Part shown: piece after piece, positions 3,163 to 31,220 of the stretch | Layout of the letters: the number at the start of each line of letters is the position of its first letter | How positions within the stretch are numbered: the stretch's first letter is position 1 | DNA from: an uncultured Candidatus Saccharibacteria bacterium | Lineage (GTDB): Bacteria > Patescibacteriota > DYJS01 > CAYMEI01 | Direction of reading: 5' to 3' | DNA: 32,091 bases | Assembly: GCA_964389605.1 (NCBI GenBank) | Contig: CAYMEI010000003.1 | Span: 1 to 32,091 of the forward strand | Notes under the pieces: generated by a model | Seen by the model: only the letters and a program-made list of their open reading frames with translations | Databases searched by the model: none | Told to the model about the DNA's origin: nothing | Program-made: the position numbers and the translations under genes

Positions 3163-3233
3163 TCGGGTGTCGTCTAATGGTAGGACAACAGACTCTGAAT
3201 CTGTTAATCGAGGTTCGAATCCTTGCACCCGAG
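3163..3233 (+). tRNA. tRNA-Gln (anticodon CUG)
   Basis: Cloverleaf by hand. Acceptor TCGGGTG/CACCCGA; D arm GTC..GAC; anticodon stem ACAGA/TCTGT with loop CTCTGAA; T arm CGAGG-TTCGAAT-CCTTG; discriminator G. No encoded CCA. Confidence 0.85.
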
Positions 3234-4511
3234 CATATCACTACTCTCAGTCAAAATCTTACTCACCCTTAGCTCATTTATTAAGGTAATATCTAGTTTT
3301 TCATTCTCAATTGAGAGGTTCGAACTTGATAGTTTTAAAATCATGTTTTTTTGTTCAGGGTTCGAACCACTATAAATTTCAGGTAACATATTAATTATCT
3401 TCTGAATGGTAATAAGGTTAATATAAGGTAAAGACTTATTAGATTTTAAATCATCTATTCTTTTATTAACTCTATCTAATTCTAACTCTTTTTTATGTAT
3501 AATTTCTTCTGCTTTTTCTATAGTTATACTTCCTGTATCTCCTAGAAAAACTTTTTCCCTGCCTTCTGCTATCTGTTTTTCAAGCCTAGTTTTCTCTCCT
3601 TCCGTTCTTACAAGCTCCTGATTATTAGATATAAACTGTTCAGTTTGCCACTCTATAAGAATATCCATAGCTTTTTGAGCGTCTTGTTCGGGTACATATA
3701 GATTGCTTAATGAGTCTATTATTTGAGGTTCATATCTCTTCTCATCTACATACTTAGTCTTCCCTCCATTGTGTTTTTTGCAGTAGCTACAGTAGCATAT
3801 ATTGATTATATGCCCATTCTTTTTAAATGTAGGGCTTACGCCTATCTTGTGACCACATACACCACAGGTAGCAATCCCATCAAGTATTCTTGGTACTTCA
3901 GAACTTCTGGTTTTCTTCTGTTTCTTGATATTAGCACATCTATTGTTCTTACCTGCAAGCTTATTCTGAACAATCTCAAAGGTTTCAGGGTCGGTTAAGC
4001 GTTCGTACTTATGCTTAAATGAACCTTCCCTAGTTTCAATAATGCCTATATAGAATTTGTTTTTGAGTATCTTGCCTATACCGCCCTTATCGTATTTATT
4101 GCCCTTCTTATTCTTTAGATTTTTTACCTCTGCCCACTCAATCAGATCGGCTAGGCTATAGTTATGGTAAGCATACAGATTAAATAATTCAGTAATCTTT
4201 GGTGCAACTGCTTCATCTTTAAGTTTACCACCAACCCTGCCTCGTTCGTCATACTTAACATAAAAACCTTTTGGCATACCAGTAAATGGGTATTCACCAT
4301 CTCTAAGCATTTTCTTATGGGTTTGAAACTGCCTGTCTGAATTAACCTTAGATTCAATATGACTGTTTAAAGAAGAAAGTACATACTGGTAAAGCACACC
4401 AGTATTCTCTATTCCTATAGCTCCTCCAAAATCAGTCACTGAATGTATTTTACTTGCAATAAGTGATAAACCACCTATACCTTCCTCCATATTTCTTGCC
4501 AGCCTATCCAC
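3204..4511 (-). CDS. Large serine recombinase, C-terminal part (end of catalytic domain, recombinase domain, zinc ribbon, coiled coil)
   Basis: Reads VDRLARNMEEG ..., then GMPKGFYVKYD, and a Cys cluster CGVCGHK...CYCSYCKK typical of large serine integrases. The annotated start is GTG. The frame is open upstream to 4547 (RIPELAVIVVKSVDRLARN). The stop TAA 3204-3206 lies within the tRNA-Gln gene. Confidence 0.8.
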   Translation of the reverse strand: MDRLARNMEEGIGGLSLIASKIHSVTDFGGAIGIENTGVLYQYVLSSLNSHIESKVNSDRQFQTHKKMLRDGEYPFTGMPKGFYVKYDERGRVGGKLKDEAVAPKITELFNLYAYHNYSLADLIEWAEVKNLKNKKGNKYDKGGIGKILKNKFYIGIIETREGSFKHKYERLTDPETFEIVQNKLAGKNNRCANIKKQKKTRSSEVPRILDGIATCGVCGHKIGVSPTFKKNGHIINICYCSYCKKHNGGKTKYVDEKRYEPQIIDSLSNLYVPEQDAQKAMDILIEWQTEQFISNNQELVRTEGEKTRLEKQIAEGREKVFLGDTGSITIEKAEEIIHKKELELDRVNKRIDDLKSNKSLPYINLITIQKIINMLPEIYSGSNPEQKNMILKLSSSNLSIENEKLDITLINELRVSKILTESSDMLGCKDSNLD

Positions 4512-6436: not shown

Positions 6437-6625
6437 ATGGATCACACAACAGTAAGACAAGCTATTGAAGAAGTCTTAAAAAATGATGACAGACTCTGGA
6501 ACGAAGATAAAACAGAGCTTAACCATCCGTTGCTTATGGATTTAGTAGAAAAAACTGATGAGATTCTAATTGATCTGCCACTTCGGGAAGAAGAAGTAAA
6601 CAATAAGTCAAAAAGTGATGTCTAA
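6437..6625 (+). CDS. Small ORF, possibly a remnant of a Mod N-terminal domain
   Basis: 62-aa ORF overlapping the mod start by 11 nt in another frame. VLKNDDRLWNEDKTELNHPLLMDLVEKTDEILIDL resembles N-terminal helices that, from memory, occur in some Type III-like methyltransferases. Confidence 0.3.
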   Translation: MDHTTVRQAIEEVLKNDDRLWNEDKTELNHPLLMDLVEKTDEILIDLPLREEEVNNKSKSDV

Positions 6626-8441
6626 ATATCAGAATTATACAAGAGACCAGCTTGTTCAGCTTTTGGAAGAGAAAGATAAAAACTCTGAAAAAAAGTATGG
6701 GCTTTTTTGGGACGAAGAGAGGGAGAGAGAAAAGGTGGTTGTGGAATGCGAGGATAATTTGCCAGTTTTGGAGAGGGTGGGAAGTAAAGAAATTAGAACA
6801 GGTGAAAGTGGACACAATCTTTTGATTGAAGGTGATAATTACCACGCCTTGACTGTTCTAAACTACACCCACAAAGAAAAAATTGATGTTATTTATATTG
6901 ATCCGCCGTATAACACAGGGAACAGGGATTTTGCTTACAATGACAGGTACATAGACCGAGAAGATAGTTTTCGTCATTCCAAATGGCTTAATTTTATGGA
7001 GAAGAGGCTAATTTTAGCCAAAAGATTATTGAGTGAAAAAGGGGTGATTTTTATTTCCATTGATGATAATGAACAGGCTTATTTAAAAGTTTTGTGTGAT
7101 GCGATTTTTGGAGGGGAAAATTTTGTTGCAAATATAATTATACAAAGCAACCCAAGAGGCTCACAATCAAGCAAGCATTTAGCAAATGTCCATGAATATC
7201 TTTTGTGTTATGCAAAAGCAAGTGATAAATTAAACTTAATAGGAGAAGATAAAAAAGATGATACAGTTCTAGAGTATAATTTAGTAGATAAGAAAGATGG
7301 TGAAGTTTTGAGATATAGGCTTCTAGGGTTAAGGCAAAGAGGTGGAGCATGGAAAAGAGAGGACAGACCTAAAATGTTTTATCCAATTTATATTGATCCG
7401 AAAACTGGAAATTGTTCTTTAGAACAAAATGATATTTTTACAGAAGTTACTTTACCCAAAAGACCAACTGGAGAAGAAGGAAGATGGACATGGTCAAAAG
7501 AAAAATTACAAAAAGATATAAAATTTTTAATTGGGAAAAAAGTAAGCAGAAGAGGGGAAGAAAACTTTTGGGATATTTTTAGAAAAGATTATTTGCTAAA
7601 TGATGATGGAGAGGTAAAAACCTCCAAGACAAAAACAATTTGGATTGAAAAAGAGTTAAATTATCAAAACGGAAGAACTGTATTAAAAAATGTTTTGAAT
7701 GCCGATGCTTTTGATTACCCAAAACCTGTAGAATTACTAAAAAGAATACTTAAAATTTCAAGCCAACCGAACTCAACTGTTCTTGATTTTATGGCAGGCA
7801 CAGGAACCACAGGGCAGGCAGTTTTGGAGCTAAACAAAGAAGACGGAGGGAATCGTCAATTTATTCTTTGCACCAACAACGAGCTAAATGGAGTAGGTAG
7901 CCAACTAGCTGAAAGTGAAAAACTAAAAACTAATAGTGAAAATTTTAATCCAGAACAGTTTGGAATTTGCCAAAGGGTAACTTATCCAAGGCTACAAAAG
8001 ATCATTCAAGGTTATAATAAAAATGGAGATGGTGAGTGGGTTGATGGTTTGGGTGGAAACTTGATGTATTTCAAGACTGCTTTTGTGCAGAGTAGCAACA
8101 ACAGAGACCAAGTTAAATTTGCTTTGTTGAACCAATGCACAGAAATGCTTTGTGTTAGGGAAGGAGCTTTTGATTTGCAAGAGGAGAATGAAAACTACAA
8201 AATTTTTATATCTGCCGACAAAAAGAGGGTGATGGGAGCTTATTTTGATTTTTTCAAGCTAGACCTAGAAGAGTTTGCAAGCAAGATAGCAGGTTTTGAA
8301 GGACGAAAAAGGGTTTATATTTTTTCAGAAGACAAAAAGGTAGATAAGACACTTTTTAGAGAAATTCCAAACTGCACAGTTGAAGCCATCCCCGAACCAA
8401 TTTTAGAAATTTACAAAGAATTAATAAAGTTAAGTAAGTAG
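6615..8441 (+). CDS. mod: Type III restriction-modification methyltransferase (Mod), N6-adenine/N4-cytosine beta class
   Basis: Motif IV, VIYIDPPYNTG, lies upstream of motif I, LDFMAGTGTTGQA. NLLIEGDNYHAL precedes motif IV. The gene lies directly upstream of a res helicase-nuclease. Confidence 0.9.
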   Translation: MMSKYQNYTRDQLVQLLEEKDKNSEKKYGLFWDEEREREKVVVECEDNLPVLERVGSKEIRTGESGHNLLIEGDNYHALTVLNYTHKEKIDVIYIDPPYNTGNRDFAYNDRYIDREDSFRHSKWLNFMEKRLILAKRLLSEKGVIFISIDDNEQAYLKVLCDAIFGGENFVANIIIQSNPRGSQSSKHLANVHEYLLCYAKASDKLNLIGEDKKDDTVLEYNLVDKKDGEVLRYRLLGLRQRGGAWKREDRPKMFYPIYIDPKTGNCSLEQNDIFTEVTLPKRPTGEEGRWTWSKEKLQKDIKFLIGKKVSRRGEENFWDIFRKDYLLNDDGEVKTSKTKTIWIEKELNYQNGRTVLKNVLNADAFDYPKPVELLKRILKISSQPNSTVLDFMAGTGTTGQAVLELNKEDGGNRQFILCTNNELNGVGSQLAESEKLKTNSENFNPEQFGICQRVTYPRLQKIIQGYNKNGDGEWVDGLGGNLMYFKTAFVQSSNNRDQVKFALLNQCTEMLCVREGAFDLQEENENYKIFISADKKRVMGAYFDFFKLDLEEFASKIAGFEGRKRVYIFSEDKKVDKTLFREIPNCTVEAIPEPILEIYKELIKLSK

Positions 8442-9169: not shown

Positions 9170-10663
9170 ATGTCCCTAAAATCACTCAAAACCTACCAAG
9201 AAAAAGCAGTTGAAGAGCTAATTTACAAGTCCAAGCTACTTTTGGAAAAAGATCAAGACAAGCGGACTTTGGTTTTTCAAGCCCCGACTGGAAGCGGAAA
9301 GACTTTTATGATGTCTAACTATATCCGAGAGTTGATCGATGAACTGGAGAGAAATGTCTGTTTTATTTGGGTGAGTATTGGCAAAGGGGATTTGCATATT
9401 CAAAGCTATCAGTCCATCAAAGAAGAACTTTTTTATTTTCCAAATGTCTGTCTTCTTGAGCAAGAATATTTTGGACACAAAGCCCATATTCAAAACAACG
9501 ATGTAGTTGTTGTTAATTGGGAAAAACTGCGAACCAAAGACAGAGAAACGGGAGACTGGAAAAACAAACTGATGAGAGACGGTGAACTGTGGAACTTTAG
9601 GGAACTGATTGAAAACACCAAAGAACTTGGAAAGTTGATTGTGATGATAATTGACGAAAGCCACTCAAACTCAACCAGTGAGAGAGCTTTGGAACTGCGA
9701 GACGAAATTGTAAAAGCAGATTTGACGGTGGAAATGTCCGCCACTCCAGTTTTACGAGAAGGTAATTATCAAGAAAAGGTGGTTGTAGAGCCAACGGATG
9801 TCATCAACGAAGGAATGATCAAGAAGGAAATCATCATCAACGAAAATTTAGATCAGTTTTCAGAAGACGAGCTAACCAGCCAAGAATTGATTTTGGAAAG
9901 TGCCTATCAAAAAAGGCTAGAGCTAAAAGAACAATACGAAAAAGCCAATATCCGAGTTAATCCTTTAGTTTTAATCCAACTACCGACAGGAAACGAGGGG
10001 GAAGACAAAAGGGACTTTGTAGAGCAGTTTTTGGCAAAAAAAGGCATTACTTACGACAACGAAAAATTAGCCGTTTGGTTAAGTGAGGAAAAGGTCAATA
10101 ACGAAAAAAGTCTTGTTACTCCAAACGACAGCAAAGTAGAATTTTTGATTTTCAAACAAGCCATAGACACAGGGTGGGACTGCCCAAGAAGCCAAATTTT
10201 GGTTCGTTTCCGTGAAATCCGAAGTGTCACCTTTGAAATCCAAACAGTAGGACGGATCTTGAGAATGCCAGAAGCCGAGCATTACGAAAACGAGAACTTA
10301 AACCGTGCCTTTGTTTATCTCAACACAAGCGAGTTTTCAGTCAATCAAGAGACTTACAACCCCAACATTATCAAGTCGATCAGTGTCAAAAGAAGTGAAA
10401 AATATCAACCTTTACCGCTAACTTCTTACTACCGAAACCGTTTTGACTATGGAGATATAACTTCTAGCTTTTATCGGAGTTTAGAAAAAGTTTTGTGTAA
10501 TTATTTTGGCTTAGAAATAGGCAAACAAGAGTTTTTTGAACAGAACAAGGCTAAAGTTAAAGAAAAAATTGATTTGGTTGATTTGGCTGGTAAAGACGAG
10601 ATAATTTTGAATCGAGAAATCAAGGCAGAACTCTTTGACCAAATCACAGAGGAAAAAATCTAG
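9170..10663 (+). CDS. res: Type III restriction enzyme Res subunit, helicase part (ends at an in-frame TAG)
   Basis: Walker A VFQAPTGSGKTF and motif II IIDESH, followed by helicase C-terminal motifs (IDTGWDCPRSQIL, QTVGRILR). TAG 10661-10663 is in the same frame as 10664..11458. Confidence 0.85.
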   Translation: MSLKSLKTYQEKAVEELIYKSKLLLEKDQDKRTLVFQAPTGSGKTFMMSNYIRELIDELERNVCFIWVSIGKGDLHIQSYQSIKEELFYFPNVCLLEQEYFGHKAHIQNNDVVVVNWEKLRTKDRETGDWKNKLMRDGELWNFRELIENTKELGKLIVMIIDESHSNSTSERALELRDEIVKADLTVEMSATPVLREGNYQEKVVVEPTDVINEGMIKKEIIINENLDQFSEDELTSQELILESAYQKRLELKEQYEKANIRVNPLVLIQLPTGNEGEDKRDFVEQFLAKKGITYDNEKLAVWLSEEKVNNEKSLVTPNDSKVEFLIFKQAIDTGWDCPRSQILVRFREIRSVTFEIQTVGRILRMPEAEHYENENLNRAFVYLNTSEFSVNQETYNPNIIKSISVKRSEKYQPLPLTSYYRNRFDYGDITSSFYRSLEKVLCNYFGLEIGKQEFFEQNKAKVKEKIDLVDLAGKDEIILNREIKAELFDQITEEKI

Positions 10664-12591: not shown

Positions 12592-13080
12592 CTCTAATTA
12601 AATATTAAGCATAATAAAACATATACAAGTACACTAAAGATATAGAGTATGCACTCTACACCATTTATTTTAAAAGTGGCTATAAGACTCTATTTAAGGC
12701 ATTTAAATTACTAAACCATAAAAAATATACTACTTTAAATAAAAAGTGTCTTAAATGGCAATGTACATTGTCTGGTAAATGACATGGTGGCGTAATCCCC
12801 AAACACCTACCCCCCATATATATAATTCTGCGGGAATATATACCCCATATATTACTTCTTACTGGTATTACCATAAAACTTAGACTCTTCTAACACGCTA
12901 TGATTCTATGGAACTATTCACTTAATAAACTTATGCAATAATAGAGAATTGACTATTCTTAAATCAGGGGAAAGTACAATCAGATATAACTTCAGGAGAG
13001 TTAGTAAGAGTAATCAAGTCTGGCAAATAATTTAATACTCAGGATTATCTGTCTTCAGATTAATGATATAAAATTCTAAA

Positions 13081-13215
13081 TCTCATATCTACTCACACTC
13101 CACACAAGGTTTTAAATGCACTAAGTTTTTCAAAGTCTAAGGTTCGAACTTTGAGGTATTTTGCGAGCATATCACCCCTTATTCTTCTTAATAAAGTGAG
13201 CCTACTATACTATCC
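13081..13215 (-). repeat. Right (inverted) copy of the repeat at 1489-1600
   Basis: The reverse complement of 13081-13176 aligns with 1507-1600 at about 85% identity. It lies 63 nt upstream of the Type IIG start. Confidence 0.75.
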
Positions 13216-13278: not shown

Positions 13279-14697
13279 TTGAGCAGTATTGTAAAAACTT
13301 ACATCGAAAACATTAATAAAGAACTTAAGAGCGGGCATGCACGCGAGCACTCTTACCGACCGTACTTAAAAGAGCTTCTGGAGCAGATAAGCCCAAAGAT
13401 CAGTGCCATAAATGAGCCGAAACAGCAGAAAGTTGGTGCGCCGGATTTTGTACTGTTAAAAGGCAAAACACCTGTTGGGTATATTGAGGCAAAAGATGTT
13501 GATATAAACCTGGATAAAGAGCTGAAAACCAGCAACCAGATAAAACGGTACTCTGTACTTGGCAACCTGTGCTTCACCAACTACCTCGAGTTTATCTTTT
13601 ACGGTAACCAGACCGAGTACGACCGTGTTGAGATAGCAAAACTAGTAAACGGCAAACTGGAGTTTTTAGAGCAGAACTTTACCCACCTGCACAACCTGCT
13701 TAAAGATTTCTCTAATCGCTACGGTCTGACTATTGCCTCATCTAAGCAACTCGTGTCGTTAATGGCAGATAAAGCCCGTTTACTTAAAGAAACCACACTT
13801 AACGCCCTGAACGACGAAGACGATTCCGAGAACTCTGTTACCCGTCAGTTCCATGTTTTTAGAAAGATGCTCATAAAAGACCTGACCCCAGAGCAGTTTG
13901 CAGATATTTACGCCCAGACTGTTACCTACGGAATGTTTGCAGCCCGTTACCACGACAAAACTCTCGAAACATTTACCCGCGACGAAGCAAACACCCTGCT
14001 ACCTAAATCTAATCCGTTTCTGCGCAACTTTTTTCAGTCAATTGCCGGGTACAACATAGACGAGCGGATTGTATGGATAGTTGATGACCTTGCTGAGCTT
14101 TTCAGCCATGTAAATATAAAAAGCCTCCTTGAGAACTTTGGTAAAACCACCCAGCGAAGCGATGTTATAATCCACTTCTACGAAACATTTCTTGCCGAAT
14201 ACGATCCGCTCCTCCGTAAAGCCCGCGGTGTTTACTACACACCTGAGCCGGTTATTGGTTATATAATCCGCTCTGTGGACAGTATCCTGAAATCTGAGTT
14301 TGGAATCTCTACCGGTATTGCCGATACCTCTAAGGTTGAAGTAAAAAAGGAGATTAACGGCAGGAAACAGAAAGTTTTAGAACATCGGGTGCAGATTCTG
14401 GACCCTGCTACCGGTACAGGAACTTTTCTGGATCATACCATAAAGCATATTTACTCCAGCTACTTTAAGGGGCAGGAGGGGTTGTGGCAGACATTTGTTG
14501 ATGAGCATCTAATCCCCAGGCTTCACGAGTTTGAGTTGCTTATGGCAAGTTACGCAATGGCACACCTGAAACTTGACATAACACTCAGTGAAACCGGCTA
14601 CAGCTTTAAAAAAGGTTCGGGGAAACGGCTTGGGGTGTACCTTACAAACTCACTTGAAGAGGCGGAGATTATGCACAATAACCTTTTTGCTACCTAG
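13279..14697 (+). pseudogene. Type IIG/ISP-like fused endonuclease-methyltransferase, N-terminal part (ends at in-frame TAG)
   Basis: N-terminal PD-(D/E)XK motif (GAPDFVLL ... GYIEAKD). SAM motif I ILDPATGTGTFL. After TAG 14695-14697 the same frame continues ...LSDESLAANEVKKQKPIMVVIGNPPYSG, with NPPY at 14764-14775. Confidence 0.8.
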
Positions 14698-14885
14698 TTG
14701 TCGGATGAGAGCCTGGCGGCAAACGAGGTAAAGAAACAGAAGCCGATTATGGTGGTGATTGGGAATCCACCGTATTCGGGAGTTTCCACAAATAACGGAA
14801 AGTGGATAATGGATCTGATTGAGGAATATAAGTATGTAGATGGCAACCATTTTAAGGAAAAAAGCACTGGCTAGGAGACGACTAT

Positions 14886-16919
14886 GTGAAGTTTATTCGT
14901 TTTGCAGAACACTTTATAGAGAAAAACCAGGAAGGGGTGCTTGCTTTTATCACAAACTATGGCTACTTGGATAATCCAACCTTCAGGGGAATGCGTCAGC
15001 ATTTAATGAGAACTTTTAATAAAATCTACCTACTTGATCTACACGGAAACAGTCTGAAAAAAGAAACCAGTCCAGATGGCTCAAAAGACGAAAATGTTTT
15101 TGATATTCAGGCAGGTGTGTCAATTATACTTGGCGTTAAAACTAACACTGGAAAATCTAATAAATGTGAGGTTTACCATAGCGATCTGTTTGATAAAAGA
15201 GACGACAAGTACAGTTTTCTGGAACAAAACTATCTAGGAACAACTAATTGGGTGAAATTATCGCCGCAAGCTCCGTACTACTTTTTTGTTGAGAAGGACT
15301 TGAGATTAGAAGACGAGTATGCTCAAGGTGTAAAATTAAATGAACTGTTTCCGGTTAATACGACTGGGATTGTTACCATGGGAGACAGCTTTATTATTGG
15401 AAGTAAAGAGTATGTTGAGCAAAACACTAGATATCTTCTTTTTAATGACGTGTCTGAATCTGAACTAAAAGAAAGTTTTGGGCTTGGCAAGAACTATGCA
15501 AAATGGGTTATTCAGAATAAGGACAGAATACATTTTTCATCTAACAGGATTACTCCCATTGAATATAGACCATTTGATACTCGATACACATATTTTGATG
15601 GTAAGTTGGTTTGGAGGCTTAGAGAGAAAGTTATGCAACATATGCTTAACGGTGAGAATTTGGGGTTGATCTCAGCTAGGTCAAATAAATCTCAAAGAAT
15701 GGATCACTTTTTTATGACTGATAAGATAATGGAGACTAAGTGTGGGGAGTCAACAACACAGTCAGCCATTTTCCCCCTCTACTTCTACCCACCCAAAAGG
15801 GAAGAGGAGAAGGAGCTGTTTGGGGAGGGTAAAAACACCCCGCCCTACGGGCACCCCTCCCGCACCTTATTAGGGCGGCTTACGCACGCCCAAAGCTGCT
15901 TTAAGGGGAACTTAGTGCGATCTTCTACATATTCAAATGAAAGTAGCAAAGCCAATTCCCCTTCTCAGAAGGGGTGGACGCTGAAAGCGGACGGGGTAGT
16001 CCCTGATCAGAAGGGGTGGCAGGCGGAGCCTGACGGGGTAGTCAAAAAAACAGACTGGTACAATCTGCCATTTAATCCAAAACTAAAAGATAAAGCCAAG
16101 GAGCTAAGAAAGGCAGGAAACCTCTCAGAGGCACTCTTCTGGAATAAAATAAAAAACAGACAGCTAGCTGGTTTAGATTTTGACCGACAAAAGATAATCG
16201 GAAACTACATTGTAGATTTTTACTGTTCTGAAATAGGCCTTGTAGTAGAAATTGATGGAGAGAGTCACAGTTATAAAGGAGAGTATGATGAACAGAGAGA
16301 TGAGTTCTTAAAAAGTCTGGGGCTGACTGTAATCCATCTGAGTGATAAAGAAGTTAAGCAGAATCTGGATTTGGTAGTTGAAGGGTTGGTCGGGTGGATT
16401 GAAGAGGTAATCATAAATCAAGACTTTAACAGTACTCGTATTCAGAGCAGTAACAAAAACACCCCGCTCTTCACACCCGAAGATGCTTTAGAGGGGAACT
16501 GCTACTTCACCCCAACAGATCTTTTAGACTATATTTACGCTGTACTCCACTCACCCACCTACAGAGAGAAATATAAAGAGTTTTTAAAAATAGATTTTCC
16601 AAAAGTTCCAATAACAGAAGATAAAGAAAAGTTCTGGAAACTGGTTGGGCTTGGGAAAGAGCTGAGGCAGTTTCATTTACTGGAACACCCGGAAAGCAGT
16701 GAGTTTATTACACAGTTCCCGGTTTCAGGAAGCAACAGAGTTACAGATACACCAAAGTTTAGCCCAAGTATTGAAAATAGAGAGATTGGGAGCGTATTTA
16801 TAAACGAATCACAGTACTTTAAAGGAGTACCAAAATCTGTATTTGAGTTTTTTATAGGCGGTTACCAGCCAGCACAGAAATGGCTTAAAGACAGAAAAGG
16901 GAGGGAGGTGCTTTTTTAA
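14886..16919 (+). pseudogene. Type IIG/ISP-like enzyme, C-terminal part carrying an inserted DUF559 cassette
   Basis: This frame is open from 14856 (KKHWLGDDYVKFIRFAE...). It is joined to the upstream part by a frameshift in the A6 run 14858-14863. The conserved C-terminal block is DYIYAVLHSPTYREKYKEFLKIDFPKVP ... GGYQPAQKWLKDRKGRE. After TAA 16917-16919 the frame continues DILHYQKNIVAL... to TAA 17004-17006. Confidence 0.8.
15831..16499 (+). mobile_element. GC-rich hairpin-module plus DUF559 (Vsr-like) endonuclease cassette, in frame within the host gene
   Basis: The DUF559 signature is LRKAGNLSEALFWNKIKNRQLAGLDFDRQKIIGNYIVDFYCSEIGLVVEIDGESHSYKGEYDEQRDEFLKSLGLTVIHLSDKEV. It is flanked by modules repeated at 30732-31180. 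AAAAACACCCCGC occurs at both 15831 and 16455. Confidence 0.6.
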
Positions 16920-24668: not shown

Positions 24669-24706
24669 AATTTATATCCAGTAACATGAAGGCTAATATA
24701 AAAAAT
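24669..24706 (-). other. 3' strand of the 23S precursor processing stem
   Basis: Complementary to 29103-29141 as blocks of 14 bp and 16 bp around an internal loop, bracketing the mature 23S. Confidence 0.7.
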
Positions 24707-24809
24707 TTAAAGTTATTAGTACCTCACGGCTCAGTACATTACTATACTTACACCTAAGGCCTATCAACCAAGTGTTCTTCTTGGAACTTAAGAAACCTTT
24801 TCAGGGCTA

Positions 24810-24840
<31 letters not shown>

Positions 24841-25612
24841 TAATCCGAACATAGCTACCCAGCGCTGCCACTGGCATGACAACTGGTGCACCAGAGGTTC
24901 GTTCATTCCGGTCCTTGCGTACTAGGAACAAGTTCCTTCAGGTTTCAAAACTACCACAGCGGATAGGGACCGTACTGTCTTGCGACGTACTGAACCCATC
25001 TCACGTACCACTTTAACGGGCGGACAGACCGACCCTTGGGAGCTTCTTCACCCCCAGGATGTGATGAGACGACATCGAGGTGCCGAGCCTCGCCGTAAAT
25101 GTGAACTCTCGGGCGAGACTAGCCTGTTACCCCCAGAGTAACTATTAGCCGATAAGCACTACCCCTAACCAAATAGAGATAGAAGATCACTAAATCCGTG
25201 TTTCCACTCTGCTCACTGCGTAAAGTTTGCAGTCAAGCCAGTTTATGCTTTTATACTTTCACTTGGATTGCCATCCCAAGCAAACTGACCTTTGAACGCC
25301 TCCGTTATCTTTTAGGAGGCAACCTCCCCAGTTAAACTCCCCGCCTGACAATGTCCTCTTTGAGTTAGATTTCACTTCTCTGGAAAGTTGGTATTTCACT
25401 GACGGCTCCACTGCCCCCGAAAGAGCAGTCTCAGTGCCTCCCAACTATACTACGCATCCAAAGTGCGAAACCAATGACAAGTTAGAGTAAAGCTTCTGGG
25501 GTCTTAATGTCCTGCTGTGGTTACCCGGCATTTGCACCGGGCGTGTAATTTCATCGAGTTCCTTGGAGAGACAGCGCTCAGATGGTTAAGCCATTCGTGC
25601 GGGTCAGAACTT

Positions 25613-26337
25613 CATAAATTGCTGAAAAGCTTTTTCCTTTTTTTCAAAAGGGATCAGACTATATCTTCACCTTGAAATAAGCTTTAGGAGATCTTCCTTT
25701 TGATATTTCCCAGTGCCACTCAAATTACTCTTGAAGGCAACTTCTAATATCTCCTTTATTTTAACGGGACTGTGATGAAAATTCTGCTTCATCATCAAAC
25801 AAACTTGTCTGAAGTTATCAAAATCGTTTTTTTTATTTGTCATCAAAGAATATCTCAAGAAGTGCGGAATAATTTTATCATTTAAATCCTTTAGATTTCT
25901 TACTTCATATTTATAAGTATTGTCTTGTTTTGAAAATCTGATTCCTCCACAAGAAAAATGATCCTTCATTATTTGCAGCACATTTAAGCTTCTTTGACTT
26001 TGCGACACGGAAAAACCTAGTTTAACTTCTACTTTAACATTTAATTTTTCTCTAAAATTAAATGATACTGAAAAGCATCCTTCTCCATCTACAAATCCTG
26101 TTATATAAGAATTAATCTCCATGACTCATACTTGATTTTATCTTCAAGGGCTGGCGTATTACGCAAATTGCGTCTCACCTTTCGGCTCAGTCGTTACGGG
26201 TCACTTTAATCATAATTAATTAAAAATTAAATAAACCAAAATGTTCCCTCGGTATTACCATATTATTAAACTTAGGCTTCACCGATATTAGCCAGGTTAC
26301 TTAATGACTGTCACCAGTCATTTCAGGCAAGTTCTTT
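25613..26337 (-). mobile_element. Group I intron at 23S position 1951 (E. coli numbering)
   Basis: The 5' exon ends ...GUCAGGU and the 3' exon resumes AAGUUCUGACC. The intron ends in G. The internal guide GCCUG (nt 10-14 of the intron) pairs with exon CAGGU, giving the U-G pair at the splice site. Confidence 0.8.
25667..26122 (-). CDS. LAGLIDADG homing endonuclease (single-motif, I-CreI-like) in intron L1951
   Basis: Reads MEINSYITGFVDGEGCFSV... and IIPHFLRYSLMTNKKNDFDNF. 151 aa. Confidence 0.85.
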   Translation of the reverse strand: MEINSYITGFVDGEGCFSVSFNFREKLNVKVEVKLGFSVSQSQRSLNVLQIMKDHFSCGGIRFSKQDNTYKYEVRNLKDLNDKIIPHFLRYSLMTNKKNDFDNFRQVCLMMKQNFHHSPVKIKEILEVAFKSNLSGTGKYQKEDLLKLISR

Positions 26338-26357
26338 ACCTGACAAGGAATTTCGCT

Positions 26358-27135
26358 CAATTGTTTCTTAACTAAACTATGTTAAGCGGATAGAATTTGC
26401 GATTCTACCTCCTGCATATCTCTATGCAGATCGGACTATCTCTTCATCCTTATTTTTATTATCAATTTTCTTAAGTATTTCTTCTTTAGCTTCCATTGTA
26501 ACTTGTTTGCTTCGTTTATTCATAGTTGAAGAAATATCTATTATTTTAACGATGCCTTGCAAATCCAGATGATATTTTTTATTTATCATTAGATTGACTA
26601 CTTTGGAAAACTTAAGAAAATCCAATTGTTTCTTGGTCTGCAATTTATACTTGAAAAAGAATGGTATAACTTTTTGATGTAAGAAATTTATATTTCTTAT
26701 TCTAAGCTCAAACCTGTCTTCATGATTAGATCTTACCACTCCAGAACCAAAAAAATCTCTGATCCTGTACAGTAGTTGCACATCTATTTTGTGCTGAACT
26801 ATCCTGAATTCGGGTAAAACTTGATAACCAAGAAGAGTATGATTATTCTTATTTATACCTACATAAAAAGTACCTTCTCCATCAGTAAAACCTGCAATCC
26901 AGTTTGAATCCAGCTTTTTCATTTTTATTTATAAAAGGATGTCTGGCGTATAGTCTCTGAGGATCCTGCAAGATTGAACTTGCAGTTTCCTGCTGATTGT
27001 CTGTATCAAGATGATTTTTACTTTTAAGCTGAACTATAAAAACAACTTAATGAGTACACCTTGCCTAACCAGATGTTTCAGCATACAGCCAGATGTTTAC
27101 CTGATTATTACTAACCAGGGAGGCAGCAAAATTCT
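26358..27135 (-). mobile_element. Group I intron at 23S position 1931 (E. coli numbering)
   Basis: The 5' exon ends ...GCUAAGGU and the 3' exon resumes AGCGAAAUUCC. The intron ends in G. GCCU near the intron 5' end can pair with exon AGGU. Confidence 0.75.
26422..26922 (-). CDS. LAGLIDADG homing endonuclease (single-motif) in intron L1931
   Basis: Reads LDSNWIAGFTDGEGTFYV... and VIPFFFKYKLQTKKQLDFLKF. 166 aa. Confidence 0.85.
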   Translation of the reverse strand: MKKLDSNWIAGFTDGEGTFYVGINKNNHTLLGYQVLPEFRIVQHKIDVQLLYRIRDFFGSGVVRSNHEDRFELRIRNINFLHQKVIPFFFKYKLQTKKQLDFLKFSKVVNLMINKKYHLDLQGIVKIIDISSTMNKRSKQVTMEAKEEILKKIDNKNKDEEIVRSA

Positions 27136-27945
27136 ACCTTAGCACCCTCAGGATTAGGGCGGGCGTTCACCGGACATTAAGTTCAAAGCTAGGCGATATT
27201 TCTATCGCTTCACCAATCCCCATAAGTTACCGGCACTGGCCAGGCTTCAGTCCCTATACTTCCTCTTACGAGTTTGCAGAGACCTGTGTTTTTGATAAAC
27301 AGTCCCCTGAGCACTTTTGCTGCGACCACCCCGTAGGGTGGCAAGCCATATCCCAAAGTTACGGCTGCTTTTTTGCCGAGTTCCTTTCCAAGGATTCTCT
27401 CGTATGCCTGAGTCTCCTCGACTCATCTACCAGTGTCGGTTTGCGGTACGGTTTGAATATTTCACATAACGAGGTTTTTCTAGCCTCCACCTTCCCGGAA
27501 GTTGCGATTTCTCACTTCCACTCGGTGCACTGATTATAGTAACGGATTTTCCTGTTACCCACAGAAACACCTTAGACGCCCATAGCCAAAGGACGCTTCC
27601 AGCTTGGCAAAGGGTCACCCCTTTATGTATAGAAATATCCAAGTACAGGAATATTAACCTGTTATCCATCGAGTATACCTTTCGGGATCCCCTTAGGACC
27701 GACTAACCCTCCGCTGAACTACATGACGGAGGAAACCTTAGATTTTCGGCATATCAGATTCTCACTGATAAATACACTACTAATGCCAACATACTCACTT
27801 GTAACCGCTCCACAGTTCCTCACAGACACTGCTTCACCGCTGTTACAACGCTCTCCTACCACTCAAAAAAATTGAGTCCCTTTCTTCGGCGTATGATTTT
27901 AGTCCCGATATATTTTCTGCGCATAGCAACTAGACTAGTGAGCTG

Positions 27946-27988
<43 letters not shown>

Positions 27989-29102
27989 AGTTGTTTCAGT
28001 CGCTACACAACATTTAAAACACTTAATCATAACTTAGGGGCCTTATAAGAAGGTCTGGGCTGTTTCCCTTTCGACTGTGGAGCTTCGCCCCCACAGTCTA
28101 ACTCTCAGTTGAACAATGCATATTCGGAGATTATCTGATAATTGTACAGTTTCCCGCCGCATATCAAACAGTAGCTCTACCCTACATTGAATTTAAAACT
28201 GAGGCTAGCCGTAAAGCTATTTCGGAGAGAACCAGCTATCTCCAAGCTCGATAGGCATTTCACCACTAACCACAAGTCATCCGAGCCATTTGCACCTGAC
28301 ACCGGTTCGGTCCTCCAGTACCTGTTACAGTACCTTCAACCTGCTCATGGTTAGATCGCTTGGTTTCGGGTCTAGCGATACAAACTTACGCTTTTTACAG
28401 CTCGCTTTCACTACGACTACAACATTATATGTCTTAACCTTGCTTGTACCGACTAACTCGTTGGCCCATTATGCAAAAGGTACACCGTCAGAGTTAAACT
28501 CCTCCGGCTAGTTATCTGCAAGGTGGTTTCAGGTTCTATTTCACTCCCCTTATTGGGGTTCTTTTCACCTTTCGCTCGCGCTACTAATCTCTATCGGTCA
28601 TTAAATGTGTTTAGCCTTAGACCTTGGCCGGCCTAGCTTCCAACGGAACTACCGTATACCGTTGTACTTAAGAGCTTACATTGTTTTGTTATTGCATTCC
28701 ATACAAGACTATCACTCTCTATGGTTAACTTTCCCAAGTTATTCTGGTTTACAATAACAAGACTTACCTTCATCCACATCCGGTGTGTAAGTCTTGCAAC
28801 ACCTAGTTGAGCATAAGTTGTGGAACCGTTTAGCTCAGCAGGTTTAGGCTTTTCCCTGTTCGCTCACCGCTACTGAGAGAATCTCATTCGATTTCTTTTC
28901 CTCCGCTTAATAAGATGATTCAGTTCAGCGAGTTCCTTCCGGAAGCTAAAGCTTCCGGTGCCAAGAATTCTTGGCGGGTCGATTCCCATTCCCACACCTC
29001 TGGATCAATGTCTGCTTGTCGACTTCCCAGAGATTTCGGCGACTACACCGTGGTTCATCAGCATTTAATGCCTAGGCATCCACCACCTGCATTAGTTTTA
29101 GT

Positions 29103-29141
29103 ATTTTTTATATTAGCCCTCCATGAAACTGGATATAAATT
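29103..29141 (-). other. 5' strand of the 23S precursor processing stem
   Basis: The reverse complement AATTTATATCCAGTTTCATGGAGGGCTAATATAAAAAAT matches the plus-strand 24669-24706 (AATTTATATCCAGTAACATGAAGGCTAATATAAAAAAT). Confidence 0.7.
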
Positions 29142-30354: not shown

Positions 30355-30731
30355 CTCTACTCATCTTTTAAAAGTTAAAAAATAAAAATAAAATGTTCAG
30401 GCTGATTTGATATAAAAACCTTTCAAAAAAATACTGAATTGTTGCTGTGTATTTATCTTTATGGTGTAATTTTTTCCATTCTACACGGTCCCACTGTCCG
30501 CTTCTTTTGCTTCTCCCCTGCTGGTATGGTCAAGATTGTGGTCCAATAAGCATCCCCGGATAATATTAAGCGTTTCCTGTATAGAACCTGCACCAGACAC
30601 GCTTAACCTTAACCCTCCCGTGTTTCTATTGTAGCTTGTTTTATCCCTGCAGTCTACTTCTCTGGTCGCTCCTTTTTTTCTTTTCTTACCTCTCCCAACA
30701 CTCACTCCAACACTGTTTTAATCTTTATTAC

Positions 30732-31180
30732 GGGGGGGGCGGGGTTCTCCCGCCCCCCCCTACAATTATATAATAGTAGCGAAGCTAATTCCCCCTCCCG
30801 TAACCTTAACAGGCGGCTAAAGCACGCCTTAAGCGGTTACACCTTAACAGGCGGCTAAAGCACGCCTTAAGCGGTTACAGGGGTGGACACCGAAGGTGGA
30901 CGGGGTAGTCCCTGATCAAAACCTGAAAAACACCCCGCCTGGCAAGCCAGGCACCCCTCTACAGAGGGGAACTTAGTGCGATCTTCTACACACTCAAGTG
31001 ATAGTAGCGAAGCTAATTCCCCTCTAAAGCAGCTTTGGGTGTGCGTAAGCCACCCCAATAAGGTGCGATAGGGGTGGCAGGCGGAGCCTGACGGGGTGGA
31101 TTAAAACAGTGACGGGCGGACACGGGTCCGCCCCTGCAATAATAATACAACTGGATATTAAGGGCGGGAGAACCCCGCCC
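30732..31180. repeat. Mosaic array of GC-rich hairpin modules (REP/BIME-like), same family as 15831-16050
   Basis: Bounded by a 12-bp G/C hairpin (30732-30760) and a 7-bp hairpin (31162-31180), each followed by TACAAT(T/A)ATATAAT. The internal modules match 15831-16050 in both orientations (coordinates are given in the findings). Confidence 0.8.
30803..30878. repeat. Perfect tandem duplication, 38 bp x 2
   Basis: ACCTTAACAGGCGGCTAAAGCACGCCTTAAGCGGTTAC occurs at 30803-30840 and again at 30841-30878. Each unit holds the hairpin AGGCG-9nt-CGCCT. Confidence 0.9.
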
Positions 31181-31220
31181 TTACAATAATATAATTAGAT
31201 GTTAAAGATAAAATATATAT

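Follow-up and report, generated by a model that had tools for sequence, protein, structure and literature searches.

Two GC-rich loci with related hairpin modules lie in the window, that is, the whole stretch of 32,091 nt of Candidatus Saccharibacteria DNA that was analysed. Locus A (15.83–16.50 kb) interrupts a restriction-modification gene and contains a DUF559 nuclease domain, and locus B (30732–31195) is an array that contains no gene and has insertions nested in its loops. A scan for GC islands found these two loci to be the longest islands outside rRNA, and the other islands carried no module sequence. Modules were identified using covariance model R1, which was built from 26 modules, all from other organisms. 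Its matches in the window were restricted to 15.83–16.50 kb and 30.86–31.10 kb, and five of them had E values of 1e-15 to 3e-5.

Organisation of the gene-less array

Locus B holds one gene-less pair of a 5'-type and a 3'-type module, a second 5'-type module and the spacer M1, and its hairpin-1 loops enclose the sub-modules M4 and M5. These contents are bracketed by three unrelated G/C hairpins without assigned strand: T1 (30732..30760, GGGGGGGGCGGGG-TTCT-CCCGCCCCCCCC), followed by TACAATTATATAAT at 30761–30774; T3 (31114..31133, GGGCGG-ACACGGGT-CCGCCC), followed by CTGCAATAATAATAC; and T2 (31162..31195, GGGCGGG-AGAAC-CCCGCCC), followed by TTACAATAATATAAT. T1 and T2 have the same stem and complementary loops. 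The motif TACAAT[TA]ATATAAT, which the earlier note had placed after the bounding hairpins, occurs only at 30761 and 31182, each time directly 3' of a G/C hairpin.

The first 5'-type module (30787..30911, plus strand; AATTCCCCC .. AGGGGTGG-ACACC-GAA-GGTG-GACGGGGTAGTCC) has a hairpin-1 loop enlarged by two tandem copies of the 38-nt M5 (30803–30878), and matched the model at 30858–30911 (plus strand, E 3e-5). The 3'-type module (30926..30974, minus strand; AAAAACACCCCGCC-TGGCAAGCCAGGC-ACCCCTC-TACA-GAGGGGAAC), matched at 30927–30974 (minus strand, E 1e-10), forms the gene-less pair with it. M1 (30965..31023, no strand), a 59-nt imperfect hairpin, separates a 3' end (AGGGGAAC) from a 5' end (AATTCCCCT), is lineage-specific, and has a partial third copy of its right arm at 30773–30794. 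The second 5'-type module (31014..31102, plus strand) carries M4 in its hairpin-1 loop in reverse orientation (31024–31067), continues with AGGGGTGG-CAGGC-GGA-GCCTG-ACGGGGTGG and matched at 31048–31102 (plus strand, E 4.5e-11). The array lies upstream of minus-strand genes. A promoter and terminator scan of locus B gave counts at the level of shuffled sequences.

The GC-rich hairpin mosaic that had been described at 30732–31180 is real, and the repeats that were said to link it to locus A were reproduced on recomputation. The 25-mer GGGGAACTTAGTGCGATCTTCTACA is identical at 15905–15929 and 30966–30990, and the similarity extends over about 58 nt with 52/58 identical positions, which is the identity of M1 to its copy at 15904–15962. 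The 27-mer GGGGTGGCAGGCGGAGCCTGACGGGGT is identical at 16013–16039 and 31071–31097; 15971–16009 equals 30880–30918 at 35 of 39 positions; 15861–15902 equals the reverse complement of 31026–31067 at 39 of 42; AAAAACACCCCGCC occurs at 15831 and 30926 and nowhere else in the window; and the tandem 38-bp duplication is exact (30803–30840 and 30841–30878). A repeat search of the window recovered the same pairs independently. We calculate that 32 kb should contain about 5e-7 exact 25-mer repeats by chance alone, which excludes a chance origin. The reported shuffling of module order and orientation also stands; it reflects two kinds of end, 5'-type and 3'-type, together with sub-modules inserted within the hairpin-1 loop.

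Locus B varies between strains in loop orientation, copy number and synteny. In the related strain L081, the T1 loop is flipped (AGAAC), M4 is placed elsewhere and the right-hand neighbouring gene is different; strain L083 has at least three M5 copies, and the contigs of L082 and L083 end within the array. M1, M4/M5 and the T hairpins are known only from loci A and B, the L081–L083 contigs and an M1-like composite in contig P0241, a related genome, which was the single match when translated M4/M1 modules were used as a protein query. A metagenome scan with the M1 arm returned one chance match inside an unrelated GC-rich gene and did not return a JGI contig known to carry the motif.

The DUF559 cassette in the type ISP-like gene

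The host ORF of locus A (14886..16919, plus strand) covers the C-terminal portion of a type ISP/IIG-like restriction-modification gene, as assigned by Pfam Type_ISP_C. Profile positions 1–159 correspond to residues 153–307 and positions 184–316 to residues 538–674; between them, the ORF is interrupted in frame by approximately 230 residues of modules and DUF559. The order is 3' module, M1, 5' module, DUF559 and a degenerate 3' module. The first 3'-type module (15831..15911, minus strand, read from the sequence) carries M4 (15861–15903) in its hairpin-1 loop, and its match to the model is weak (E 1.4) because of this loop insertion. The copy of the M1 spacer hairpin (15904..15962, no strand) was found by the repeat search, with its identity recomputed. 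Directly upstream of the DUF559 domain, a complete 5'-type module (15953–16002) and a second hairpin-2 unit (16004–16044) occupy 15953..16044 on the plus strand and gave model matches with E 1e-15 and 1.5e-8.

The nuclease domain, of the Vsr-like PD-(D/E)XK type, lies at 16080..16388 (plus strand; residues 399–501 of the ORF) and matches Pfam PF04480 with E 5.6e-30 over profile positions 2–104 of 109. It also matches PDB 3hrl (E 2.6e-15), with GNYIVDF and VE.DG..H aligned. Its GC content is 38.5%, against 55% in the modules. The cassette is closed by a degenerate 3'-type module (16452..16501, minus strand; AAAAACACCCCGC..CACACCCGAAGATGCTTTAG-AGGGGAAC), which was detected by the model at 16456–16501 (minus strand, E 0.22) and by the repeat search; judged by its sequence, it looks like an internally deleted copy of 15831–15911.

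The host gene looks like a pseudogene, and reading in frame may therefore no longer matter there. Among its closest homologues, 117 of 120 lack DUF559. Rfam gave no intron match at 15700–16600, and translation of the ORF continues uninterrupted; among the Pfam domains reported in the host ORFs, none was of the intein or Hint type, a search that did not cover splice-junction residues. The contigs retrieved with the window ORFs largely overlapped the window, and an allele of the type ISP gene with an empty site was not found.

The double-hairpin unit

The repeated unit is a double hairpin of 42, 48 or 54 nt. Hairpin 1 is conserved in sequence (ATTCCCCTCC-NNN-GGAGGGG), and hairpin 2 is preceded by a GGGGTGG motif and followed by GGGGTGGT, the end of the unit. 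Read from the sequence, GTGG or GTAG stands directly 5' of hairpin 2. The GC content of modules is 55%, compared with 37% for the genome, and the DUF559 gene itself is at the host level. The 3' module repeats the 5' module in reverse complement, and the model matches the two on opposite strands; the units are thus terminal inverted repeats of DUF559 cassettes, approximately 50 nt long, with the ends AATTCCCC...GGGGAATT. No target-site duplication was resolved at these termini, and there was no empty-site DNA to separate terminus from duplication.

Distribution and association with DUF559

The absence of further copies would have refuted a repeat family, and copies were found in large numbers. 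The association was counted at 81 loci, made up of locus A and 80 DUF559 loci fetched from many phyla. The 80 fetched loci contained 230 R1 matches, and 72 of the 81 had at least one module. Genomes that carry cassettes include that of Candidatus Haliotispira prima (NZ_CP123443, L020) as well as OZ242051 (L006), OY759729 (L012) and OY759981 (L024). A plus-strand module was present within 400 nt upstream of DUF559 at 68/81 loci and a minus-strand module within 400 nt downstream at 52/81. Near-upstream modules numbered 95 on the plus and 32 on the minus strand, and near-downstream modules 62 on the minus and 14 on the plus strand. This orientation-specific flanking is systematic across the 81 loci, and the suggested link to a DUF559 nuclease rather than a transposase is upheld. 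DUF559 was the only domain between the ends of nearly all cassettes examined. Up to about 15 model matches fell within 2 kb at one locus (L049), and gene-less 5'+3' pairs were seen at L010, L023, L025, L029 and L091. Solo, tandem and gene-less units exist within and between genes; locus B and most IMG/VR copies are intergenic. The plasmid collection yielded one distant DUF559 match only and was uninformative.

We consider locus B to be, more likely than not, a gene-less array of a mobile double-hairpin repeat whose autonomous form is a 5' module, a DUF559 gene and a 3' module. A rival explanation, which we regard as unlikely but which survives best, is that the REP-like units are moved by another enzyme (e.g. 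RAYT/Y1), or by host recombination or replication slippage alone, with DUF559 as a passenger or as a separate homing gene that landed in or was captured between units. A module-first scan of IMG/VR using a 3-nt hairpin-1 loop pattern returned 13 contigs, 12 of which had no DUF559; solo modules thus far outnumbered DUF559-linked ones in this sample, which leaves room for movement by another enzyme. Recombination alone would suffice for the loop flips and the change in copy number at locus B, and the GTGG/GTAG motif recalls the GT[AG]G of REP elements. However, the oriented flanking at 72/81 loci from many phyla is the type of evidence that ties RAYTs to REPs. No Y1 transposase was found among the scanned window ORFs and no transposase-like gene stands beside the window arrays, although the 80 fetched DUF559 loci were outside this screen.

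Covariation and the nature of the structured molecule

Pairing in hairpin 2 is kept while its sequence is free: it has 128 variants, and a stem formed in nearly all of the variants inspected. In alignment A1, 99.4% of the hairpin-2 cells were paired; in alignment A2 (150 matches), 98.5% were paired and 126 cells were changed on both sides. None of 500 shuffles was as good for either alignment, and slid controls paired at only 46–63%. The substitutions in additional copies are pair-preserving rather than random, as the covariation check put forward in the earlier note demanded of a REP/BIME-like family selected for hairpin structure, and that inference holds generally. Within the window, the compensatory difference CGCT/AGCG versus CACC/GGTG is real and comprises two double changes. 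The variants GGGCG..CGCCC, GGGTG..CACCC and AGGCG..CGCCT are likewise compensatory and all belong to one sub-module (M4/M5), in which double-sided changes affect 4 of the 13 predicted pairs and a single cell has lost pairing.

Selection for hairpin structure leaves unresolved whether the folded molecule is RNA, single-stranded DNA or a cruciform. Acting in RNA, the hairpins could stabilise or terminate transcripts, mark processing sites or form a regulatory leader ahead of the tRNA-Ala/23S/5S operon, with spread being secondary. The predicted fold of the 481-nt region is strong on both strands (z = −9.6 on the plus and −8.6 on the minus strand, against 100 dinucleotide shuffles), the covariation is compatible with RNA structure, and locus B does stand upstream of genes on the minus strand. 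G.T pairs slightly exceed A.C pairs (16:6, p = 0.05), a comparison meant to show which strand folds, in a count that is biased by the RNA model. Against such a role, 97–99% of the pairs are Watson–Crick, so that both DNA strands are able to fold equally, and one transcript would bear two different end sequences, given the reverse-complementary relation between 5' and 3' modules. Copies are found in either orientation, within ORFs and between genes at unrelated loci, and the array differs between close strains. The modules do not correspond to a known structured RNA: Rfam 15, searched with gathering thresholds over the whole window and in E-value mode at both loci, gave best scores of 13–21 bits against thresholds of 38–150. 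An RNA function as the primary explanation is therefore improbable in our judgement, more so than movement by another enzyme.

Insertion sites and reading frame

The family is not purely extragenic, which refines the first reading, since many copies lie in frame within genes. At each of the 19 loci flanked on both sides by long host ORFs, the reading frame runs through DUF559 with no stop codon, and the tandem period was divisible by three in 33 of 41 cases (p = 8e-10). Host genes include HsdR, HsdS, type ISP/IIG, Eco57I-like, N6_N4 methylase and type III methylase genes; the cassettes are typically co-oriented with the restriction-modification gene and sit at few recurrent sites. One HsdR site is common to 16 loci, and one type ISP site is common to the window, L016, L020 and P0200, the cassettes of L016 and L020 standing at the same point as in the window gene, before FAPIDILDYIYAVLHSP. 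The nearest DUF559 neighbour belonged to the same host group in 30 of 31 cases, a clustering equally compatible with transposition and with co-inheritance or homing along with the host gene; the window DUF559 does not cluster with other type ISP insertions.

Module DNA is translated as NSPPLEGW.. at one site and FPSSGGV.. at another, and this reading in different frames indicates a constraint on the nucleic acid, not the peptide. That the modules are merely protein linkers of an ancient DUF559 domain insertion, similar through recent horizontal transfer of host restriction-modification genes, is hardly tenable: read-through is indeed the rule, DUF559 sequences cluster by host gene, and the peptides NSPPLEGW..GVV and TPP..EGN recur in database proteins, but the same DNA in other frames, between genes and in reverse orientation already contradicts it, hairpin-2 changes compensate each other pair by pair and alter the encoded amino acids, the same termini occur in five unrelated host genes, and nearly all close homologues of the window gene have no insert.

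A role of inverted cassettes as phase switches found no support in assembled genomes, the hosts being almost always co-oriented and only L049 having minus-strand ORFs on both sides. Predicted targets of programmed inversion are enriched for DUF559 proteins (odds ratio 14; PMC9881135), an enrichment that flanking inverted repeats would fit.

Proposed mechanism

For the mobile double-hairpin repeat with a DUF559-carrying autonomous form, we infer that the nuclease would recognise the folded or duplex termini, although its activity on the modules is untested. By analogy with RAYT on REP/REPIN, it may move the cassettes and, in trans, the gene-less units, and homing between homologous restriction-modification genes may add to their spread. 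Units inserting into one another's loops would produce the nested, inverted and copy-number-variable arrangement of locus B, to which recombination between the short CCCCT/AGGGG arms could also contribute. No mobility event was observed, and no pair of empty and filled alleles was found between close strains. No host function of the array is implied.

Comparison with known systems

The closest resemblance is to REP/BIME sequences and REPINs with their RAYT (TnpA-REP, Y1) genes. Both are short GC-rich imperfect palindromes selected for hairpin structure, occurring singly, in inverted pairs and in mosaics, and a single-copy nuclease gene has units in inverted orientation on both sides. REP architecture includes a GT[AG]G motif, and a similar motif adjoins the hairpin here. 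REPs typically reach tens to hundreds of copies per genome; at L049, up to about 15 model matches to the present unit cluster within 2 kb. Unlike the HUH/Y1 transposase of the REP–RAYT system, the enzyme of the DUF559 cassettes is a Vsr-like PD-(D/E)XK nuclease, and the unit is a double hairpin. Furthermore, REPs are extragenic and species-specific, whereas many of the present copies lie in frame within genes, with unit lengths in multiples of three, and one consensus extends across many phyla.

Rickettsia palindromic elements (RPEs) are similar in being in-frame palindromic repeats translated as an extra peptide without stops. RPEs are 100–150 nt long and are not known outside Rickettsia or with an associated nuclease gene, whereas the present units are 42–54 nt, cross-phylum and bracket a nuclease gene. 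MITEs share the terminal inverted repeats, the gene-less 5'+3' derivatives of a gene-carrying parent, the nesting and the breaking of assemblies at the repeat. However, the DUF559 parent has no DDE or other recognised transposase, a target-site duplication is not established, and the cassette termini are themselves hairpins, one with covarying pairs.

VSR, DUF559 and DUF2726 have been placed in one nuclease superfamily grouping (PMC3424549), and the Vsr-like (EDxHD) homing endonucleases, such as I-Bth0305I and those of the 'fractured gene' type (PMC3239194, PMC2677866), fall in the same grouping. These are also small selfish nuclease genes found at the same site in homologous genes of distant taxa, and DUF559 cassettes meet this homing-type criterion, with a shared insertion site and most homologues uninterrupted. 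Vsr-like homing endonucleases reside in group I introns or between split-intein halves and are removed from RNA or protein (PMC3239194, PMC2677866), whereas DUF559 is read through in frame with no intron (Rfam) or intein detected, and has on either side conserved hairpin inverted repeats, which occur without the gene as well. Literature searches using DUF559, COG2852, Vsr-like homing endonucleases and the consensus strings revealed no description of the repeats, and we could not find a prior description of DUF559 cassettes with hairpin ends in the literature available.

Implications

The units have practical consequences: they break metagenome assemblies, as contigs end in them, inflate ORF predictions, and mark rearrangement hot spots, as the differing synteny of locus B between strains indicates. 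More tentatively, and with the odds in our view somewhat against it, DUF559 cassettes may represent a class of mobile element not yet recognised in prokaryotes, a 'translated transposon' whose sole gene encodes a Vsr-like PD-(D/E)XK nuclease. Its ends would be structure-specific double hairpins, stop-free and with lengths in multiples of three nucleotides, and could therefore enter coding sequences without breaking them; the cassette and its gene-less derivatives would colonise coding sequences, preferring restriction-modification genes, and would have spread across phyla with one conserved end sequence. If the inferred mobilisation of the units by the nuclease holds, a very common domain that has no known function, DUF559, would serve a REP-like repeat system as its nuclease. 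Thousands of odd database proteins with NSPPLEGW..GVV or TPP..EGN tails would be explained, as would restriction-modification enzymes annotated as DUF559 fusions. The family would then constitute a second, independent partnership between hairpin repeats and a dedicated nuclease beside REP/RAYT, one that tolerates or exploits insertion inside genes.

Modules shared by the two loci of the window

The earlier note had described a GC-rich hairpin mosaic at 30732-31180 (within locus B, 30732-31195) sharing repeats with a cassette at 15831-16050 (locus A, closed by a degenerate 3' module to ~16.50 kb). All items of this observation were recomputed and confirmed, each in position: the 25-mer and the 27-mer have one identical copy in both loci, the loci match at 35 of 39 positions and, in reverse complement, at 39 of 42, AAAAACACCCCGCC occurs in the window at 15831 and 30926 only, the copies of the 38-nt tandem duplicate are exact, and TACAAT[TA]ATATAAT occurs only twice, both times just after a G/C hairpin. 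A separate repeat search of the window independently recovered the same relations. The GC content of the mosaic is 56% against a window mean of 37%, loci A and B were the longest GC islands outside rRNA in a GC-island scan, and the mosaic region has a much more stable predicted fold than its shuffles (z = -9.6 on the plus strand and -8.6 on the minus strand).

A covariance model (R1) was built from 26 modules of other organisms without any window sequence. The mosaic can be parsed into modules, that is, double-hairpin repeats of a 5' type and its reverse complement, the 3' type, because R1 matches the window at defined positions: on the plus strand at 15953-16002 (E = 1e-15), 16004-16044 (E = 1.5e-8), 31048-31102 (E = 4.5e-11) and 30858-30911 (E = 3e-5), and on the minus strand at 30927-30974 (E = 1e-10), 16456-16501 (E = 0.22) and 15832-15882 (E = 1.4). 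The covariance-model search found no modules in the window outside the two loci. Module order and orientation had been called shuffled; the mixture was seen, and the R1 parse resolves it into 5'-type and 3'-type ends together with inserts nested in loops. Locus A comprises a 3' module (sub-module M4 in its hairpin-1 loop), the spacer hairpin M1, a 5' module, an extra hairpin 2, the DUF559 gene and a deleted 3' module. Locus B comprises the G/C hairpin T1, a 5' module (two M5 sub-modules in its loop), a 3' module, M1, a 5' module (inverted M4 in its loop) and the G/C hairpins T3 and T2. The DUF559 module model has no match in T1, T2 or T3.

Genomic setting

Locus B is intergenic. Its minus-strand neighbours on one flank are a 328-residue ORF and then tRNA-Ala, 23S and 5S rRNA; the opposite flank has a plus-strand gene of the Fur family. 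A 74-residue ORF without Pfam match (30481-30705, minus strand) separates the mosaic from the 328-residue ORF and was called in all strain contigs. The operon consists of tRNA-Ala, 23S and 5S, with no adjacent 16S and the 328-residue ORF upstream in its place. The 23S rRNA (24697-29110, minus strand) is 4414 nt long against a 2925-nt model and contains two LAGLIDADG endonuclease ORFs (25667-26122 and 26422-26922, both minus strand; Pfam E ~1e-25), which are probably located in introns.

Locus A is not intergenic and lies within a 677-residue ORF (14886-16919), the Pfam Type_ISP_C domain of which is split by ~230 residues corresponding to the repeat cassette and the DUF559 nuclease domain; the closest solved structure to this DUF559 by sequence is 3hrl. 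A stop codon (14695-14697) and a frameshift within an A-run (near 14860) divide the host type ISP/IIG-like gene (13279-16919), leaving three ORFs. The gene also lacks the ~30-residue RxPNLNxEIVNxIA..L.L.F segment that uninterrupted homologues carry before the insertion point. Read from its sequence, it is probably a pseudogene. Inverted repeats of ~95 nt, 90-91% complementary (1515-1605 and 13076-13167), enclose an 11.5-kb segment. It encodes tRNA-Gln, a large serine recombinase on the minus strand (3204-4511) and, as a type III-like restriction-modification pair, an N6_N4 methylase (6615-8441) and a ResIII helicase (9170-10663). The segment could represent an island that is invertible or was integrated, and one JGI contig terminates just beyond its left arm.

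Module family around DUF559 genes in other organisms

The locus A insert peptide matched DUF559 proteins of Cloacimonadales, Parcubacteria, Aenigmarchaeota, Gallionella, Nitrosomonas, Desulfuromonas, cyanobacteria and others. Their N-termini (NSPxLEGWQAQPDGVV) and C-termini (NTPxxxxxTPLKEGN) are, by sequence comparison, translated modules of the window type. We sampled 80 DUF559 loci from many phyla (48-69% protein identity; source genome absent). Their flanks read (A)ATTCCCCTCC-NNN-GGAGGGGTGG-[stem-loop]-(GAC)GGGGTGGT upstream and the reverse complement, ACCACCCC-[stem-loop]-CCACCCCTCC-NNN-GGAGGGGAAT(T), downstream, with units often in tandem (2-4 copies). When locus A was added (81 loci), a plus-orientation module was present within 400 nt upstream of DUF559 in 68 loci, a minus-orientation module within 400 nt downstream in 52, and at least one of these in 72. 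The earlier interpretation as a hairpin-repeat family linked to DUF559 is thus supported and extends across many phyla.

Covariation and constraint on nucleic acid

Hairpin 2 occurs as 128 different sequences; almost every one that was inspected folds into the stem, including CCC/GGG, GTC/GAC, GCT/AGC, CAGGC/GCCTG, CAGAC/GTCTG, CATTC/GAATG and CTCCGCC/GGCGGAG; hairpin 1 is conserved at the sequence level. In the 26 equal-length modules, 99.4% of cells were paired and five pairs were altered on both sides. In 150 covariance-model matches, 98.5% were paired, with two-sided changes in 126 cells; 500 shuffles never equalled this pairing, and slid controls reached only 46-63%. Substitutions in further copies therefore preserve pairing, as the earlier note had proposed. 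The M4/M5 sub-module had four double changes in 13 pairs, among four variants only. The Watson-Crick share of pairs was 97-99%, and the G.T to A.C ratio among module pairs (16:6) leaves the folding strand undecided.

Given matching codons, the peptide variant GWQAQPDGV would correspond to CAGGC..GCCTG and the variant GWQTQSDGV to CAGAC..GTCTG. Both are common among hairpin-2 stems in DNA; the peptide difference is accordingly read as compensatory in the underlying DNA. The modules have a GC content of 55% against 38% in the DUF559 gene, which equals the host level, and of 41 tandem periods 33 are divisible by three (p = 8e-10). Within a Chitinophagales HsdR ORF (L021), solo units at three further sites use a different frame, giving FPSSGGVAESRGGK rather than NSPPLEGWLKAGVV. 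These patterns indicate that the constraint on the modules is on nucleic acid. In the L021 ORF (1498-5904), the solo modules (3, 2 and 3 at the three sites), the DUF559 cassette and a GIY-YIG nuclease domain (residues 275-343) are all in frame. The hairpin ahead of the GIY-YIG domain, CCTGTCTGCGTGCAACGCACAGGCAG, is a different one; other small nuclease genes may likewise insert in frame, with repeats of their own.

Cassettes, solitary modules and strain variation

Nineteen loci have a long host ORF on either side, and in each of them the frame stays open through modules and DUF559 without a stop. By Pfam, the hosts are HsdR, HsdS (between its two target-recognition domains), type ISP/IIG, an Eco57I-like enzyme and N6_N4 methylase. 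Within the type ISP C-terminal domain, the insertion point of the window cassette is shared by Desulfobulbaceae (L016), Candidatus Haliotispira (L020) and the database protein P0200, and 117 of the 120 closest homologues lack DUF559, with the alignment continuous across the site. DUF559 sequences group by host site (nearest neighbour in the own group for 30 of 31), the window copy being the exception.

Pairs of 5' and 3' modules without a gene were found in five loci (L010, L023, L025, L029 and L091), and an IMG/VR scan selecting on the module yielded 13 contigs, only one with DUF559 (L099, a textbook cassette). Two MAGs also have dense arrays of modules in both orientations at a distance from DUF559: one of Fimbriimonadaceae (L049, 2377-4246), with ~15 units in 2 kb, and one of Pseudomonadales (L006, 1055-2031), where an HsdS-like C-terminus (KGLMQQLFP) occurs twice ahead of the array. 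Contig ends inside or adjoining modules or cassettes (L001, L005, L011, L015, L017, L022, L082, L083 and others) are consistent with multi-copy repeats breaking short-read assemblies.

Contigs carrying the gene neighbouring locus B were compared between strains. In L081, the left flank is the same as in the window, M4 sits in the loop of the 3' module, and the neighbour beyond the array is lycopene cyclase instead of Fur. The T1 loop is flipped, AGAAC in L081 (2209-2239) versus GTTCT in the window (30732-30760), between identical flanks, which suggests recombination across the palindrome arms; T2 of the window has the L081-type loop. L083 has at least three copies of M5, and both L082 and L083 terminate within the array. 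In a related genome, protein P0241 is a translated composite of a 3' module, an M1-like spacer and a 5' module.

Relation to known systems

Nothing comparable to the modules was present in Rfam, and the match to a known structured RNA that would have refuted the earlier reading did not appear there. No prior description of the family was found in the accessible portions of open-access texts mentioning DUF559 or in those retrieved for COG2852, Vsr-like homing endonuclease or the consensus strings. DUF559 is grouped with Vsr and a group I intron homing endonuclease in PMC3424549, and a table in PMC9881135 gives DUF559 proteins as enriched among predicted inversion targets, with no mention of them elsewhere in that paper. 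Like REP/RAYT, the family combines a nuclease gene with inverted hairpin units on either side, and these units occur far more often alone; like homing endonucleases, it uses the same site in homologous genes. No activity, mobility event, empty site or target duplication was observed; by analogy with these systems, a plausible but untested mechanism would be that DUF559 acts on the module termini.
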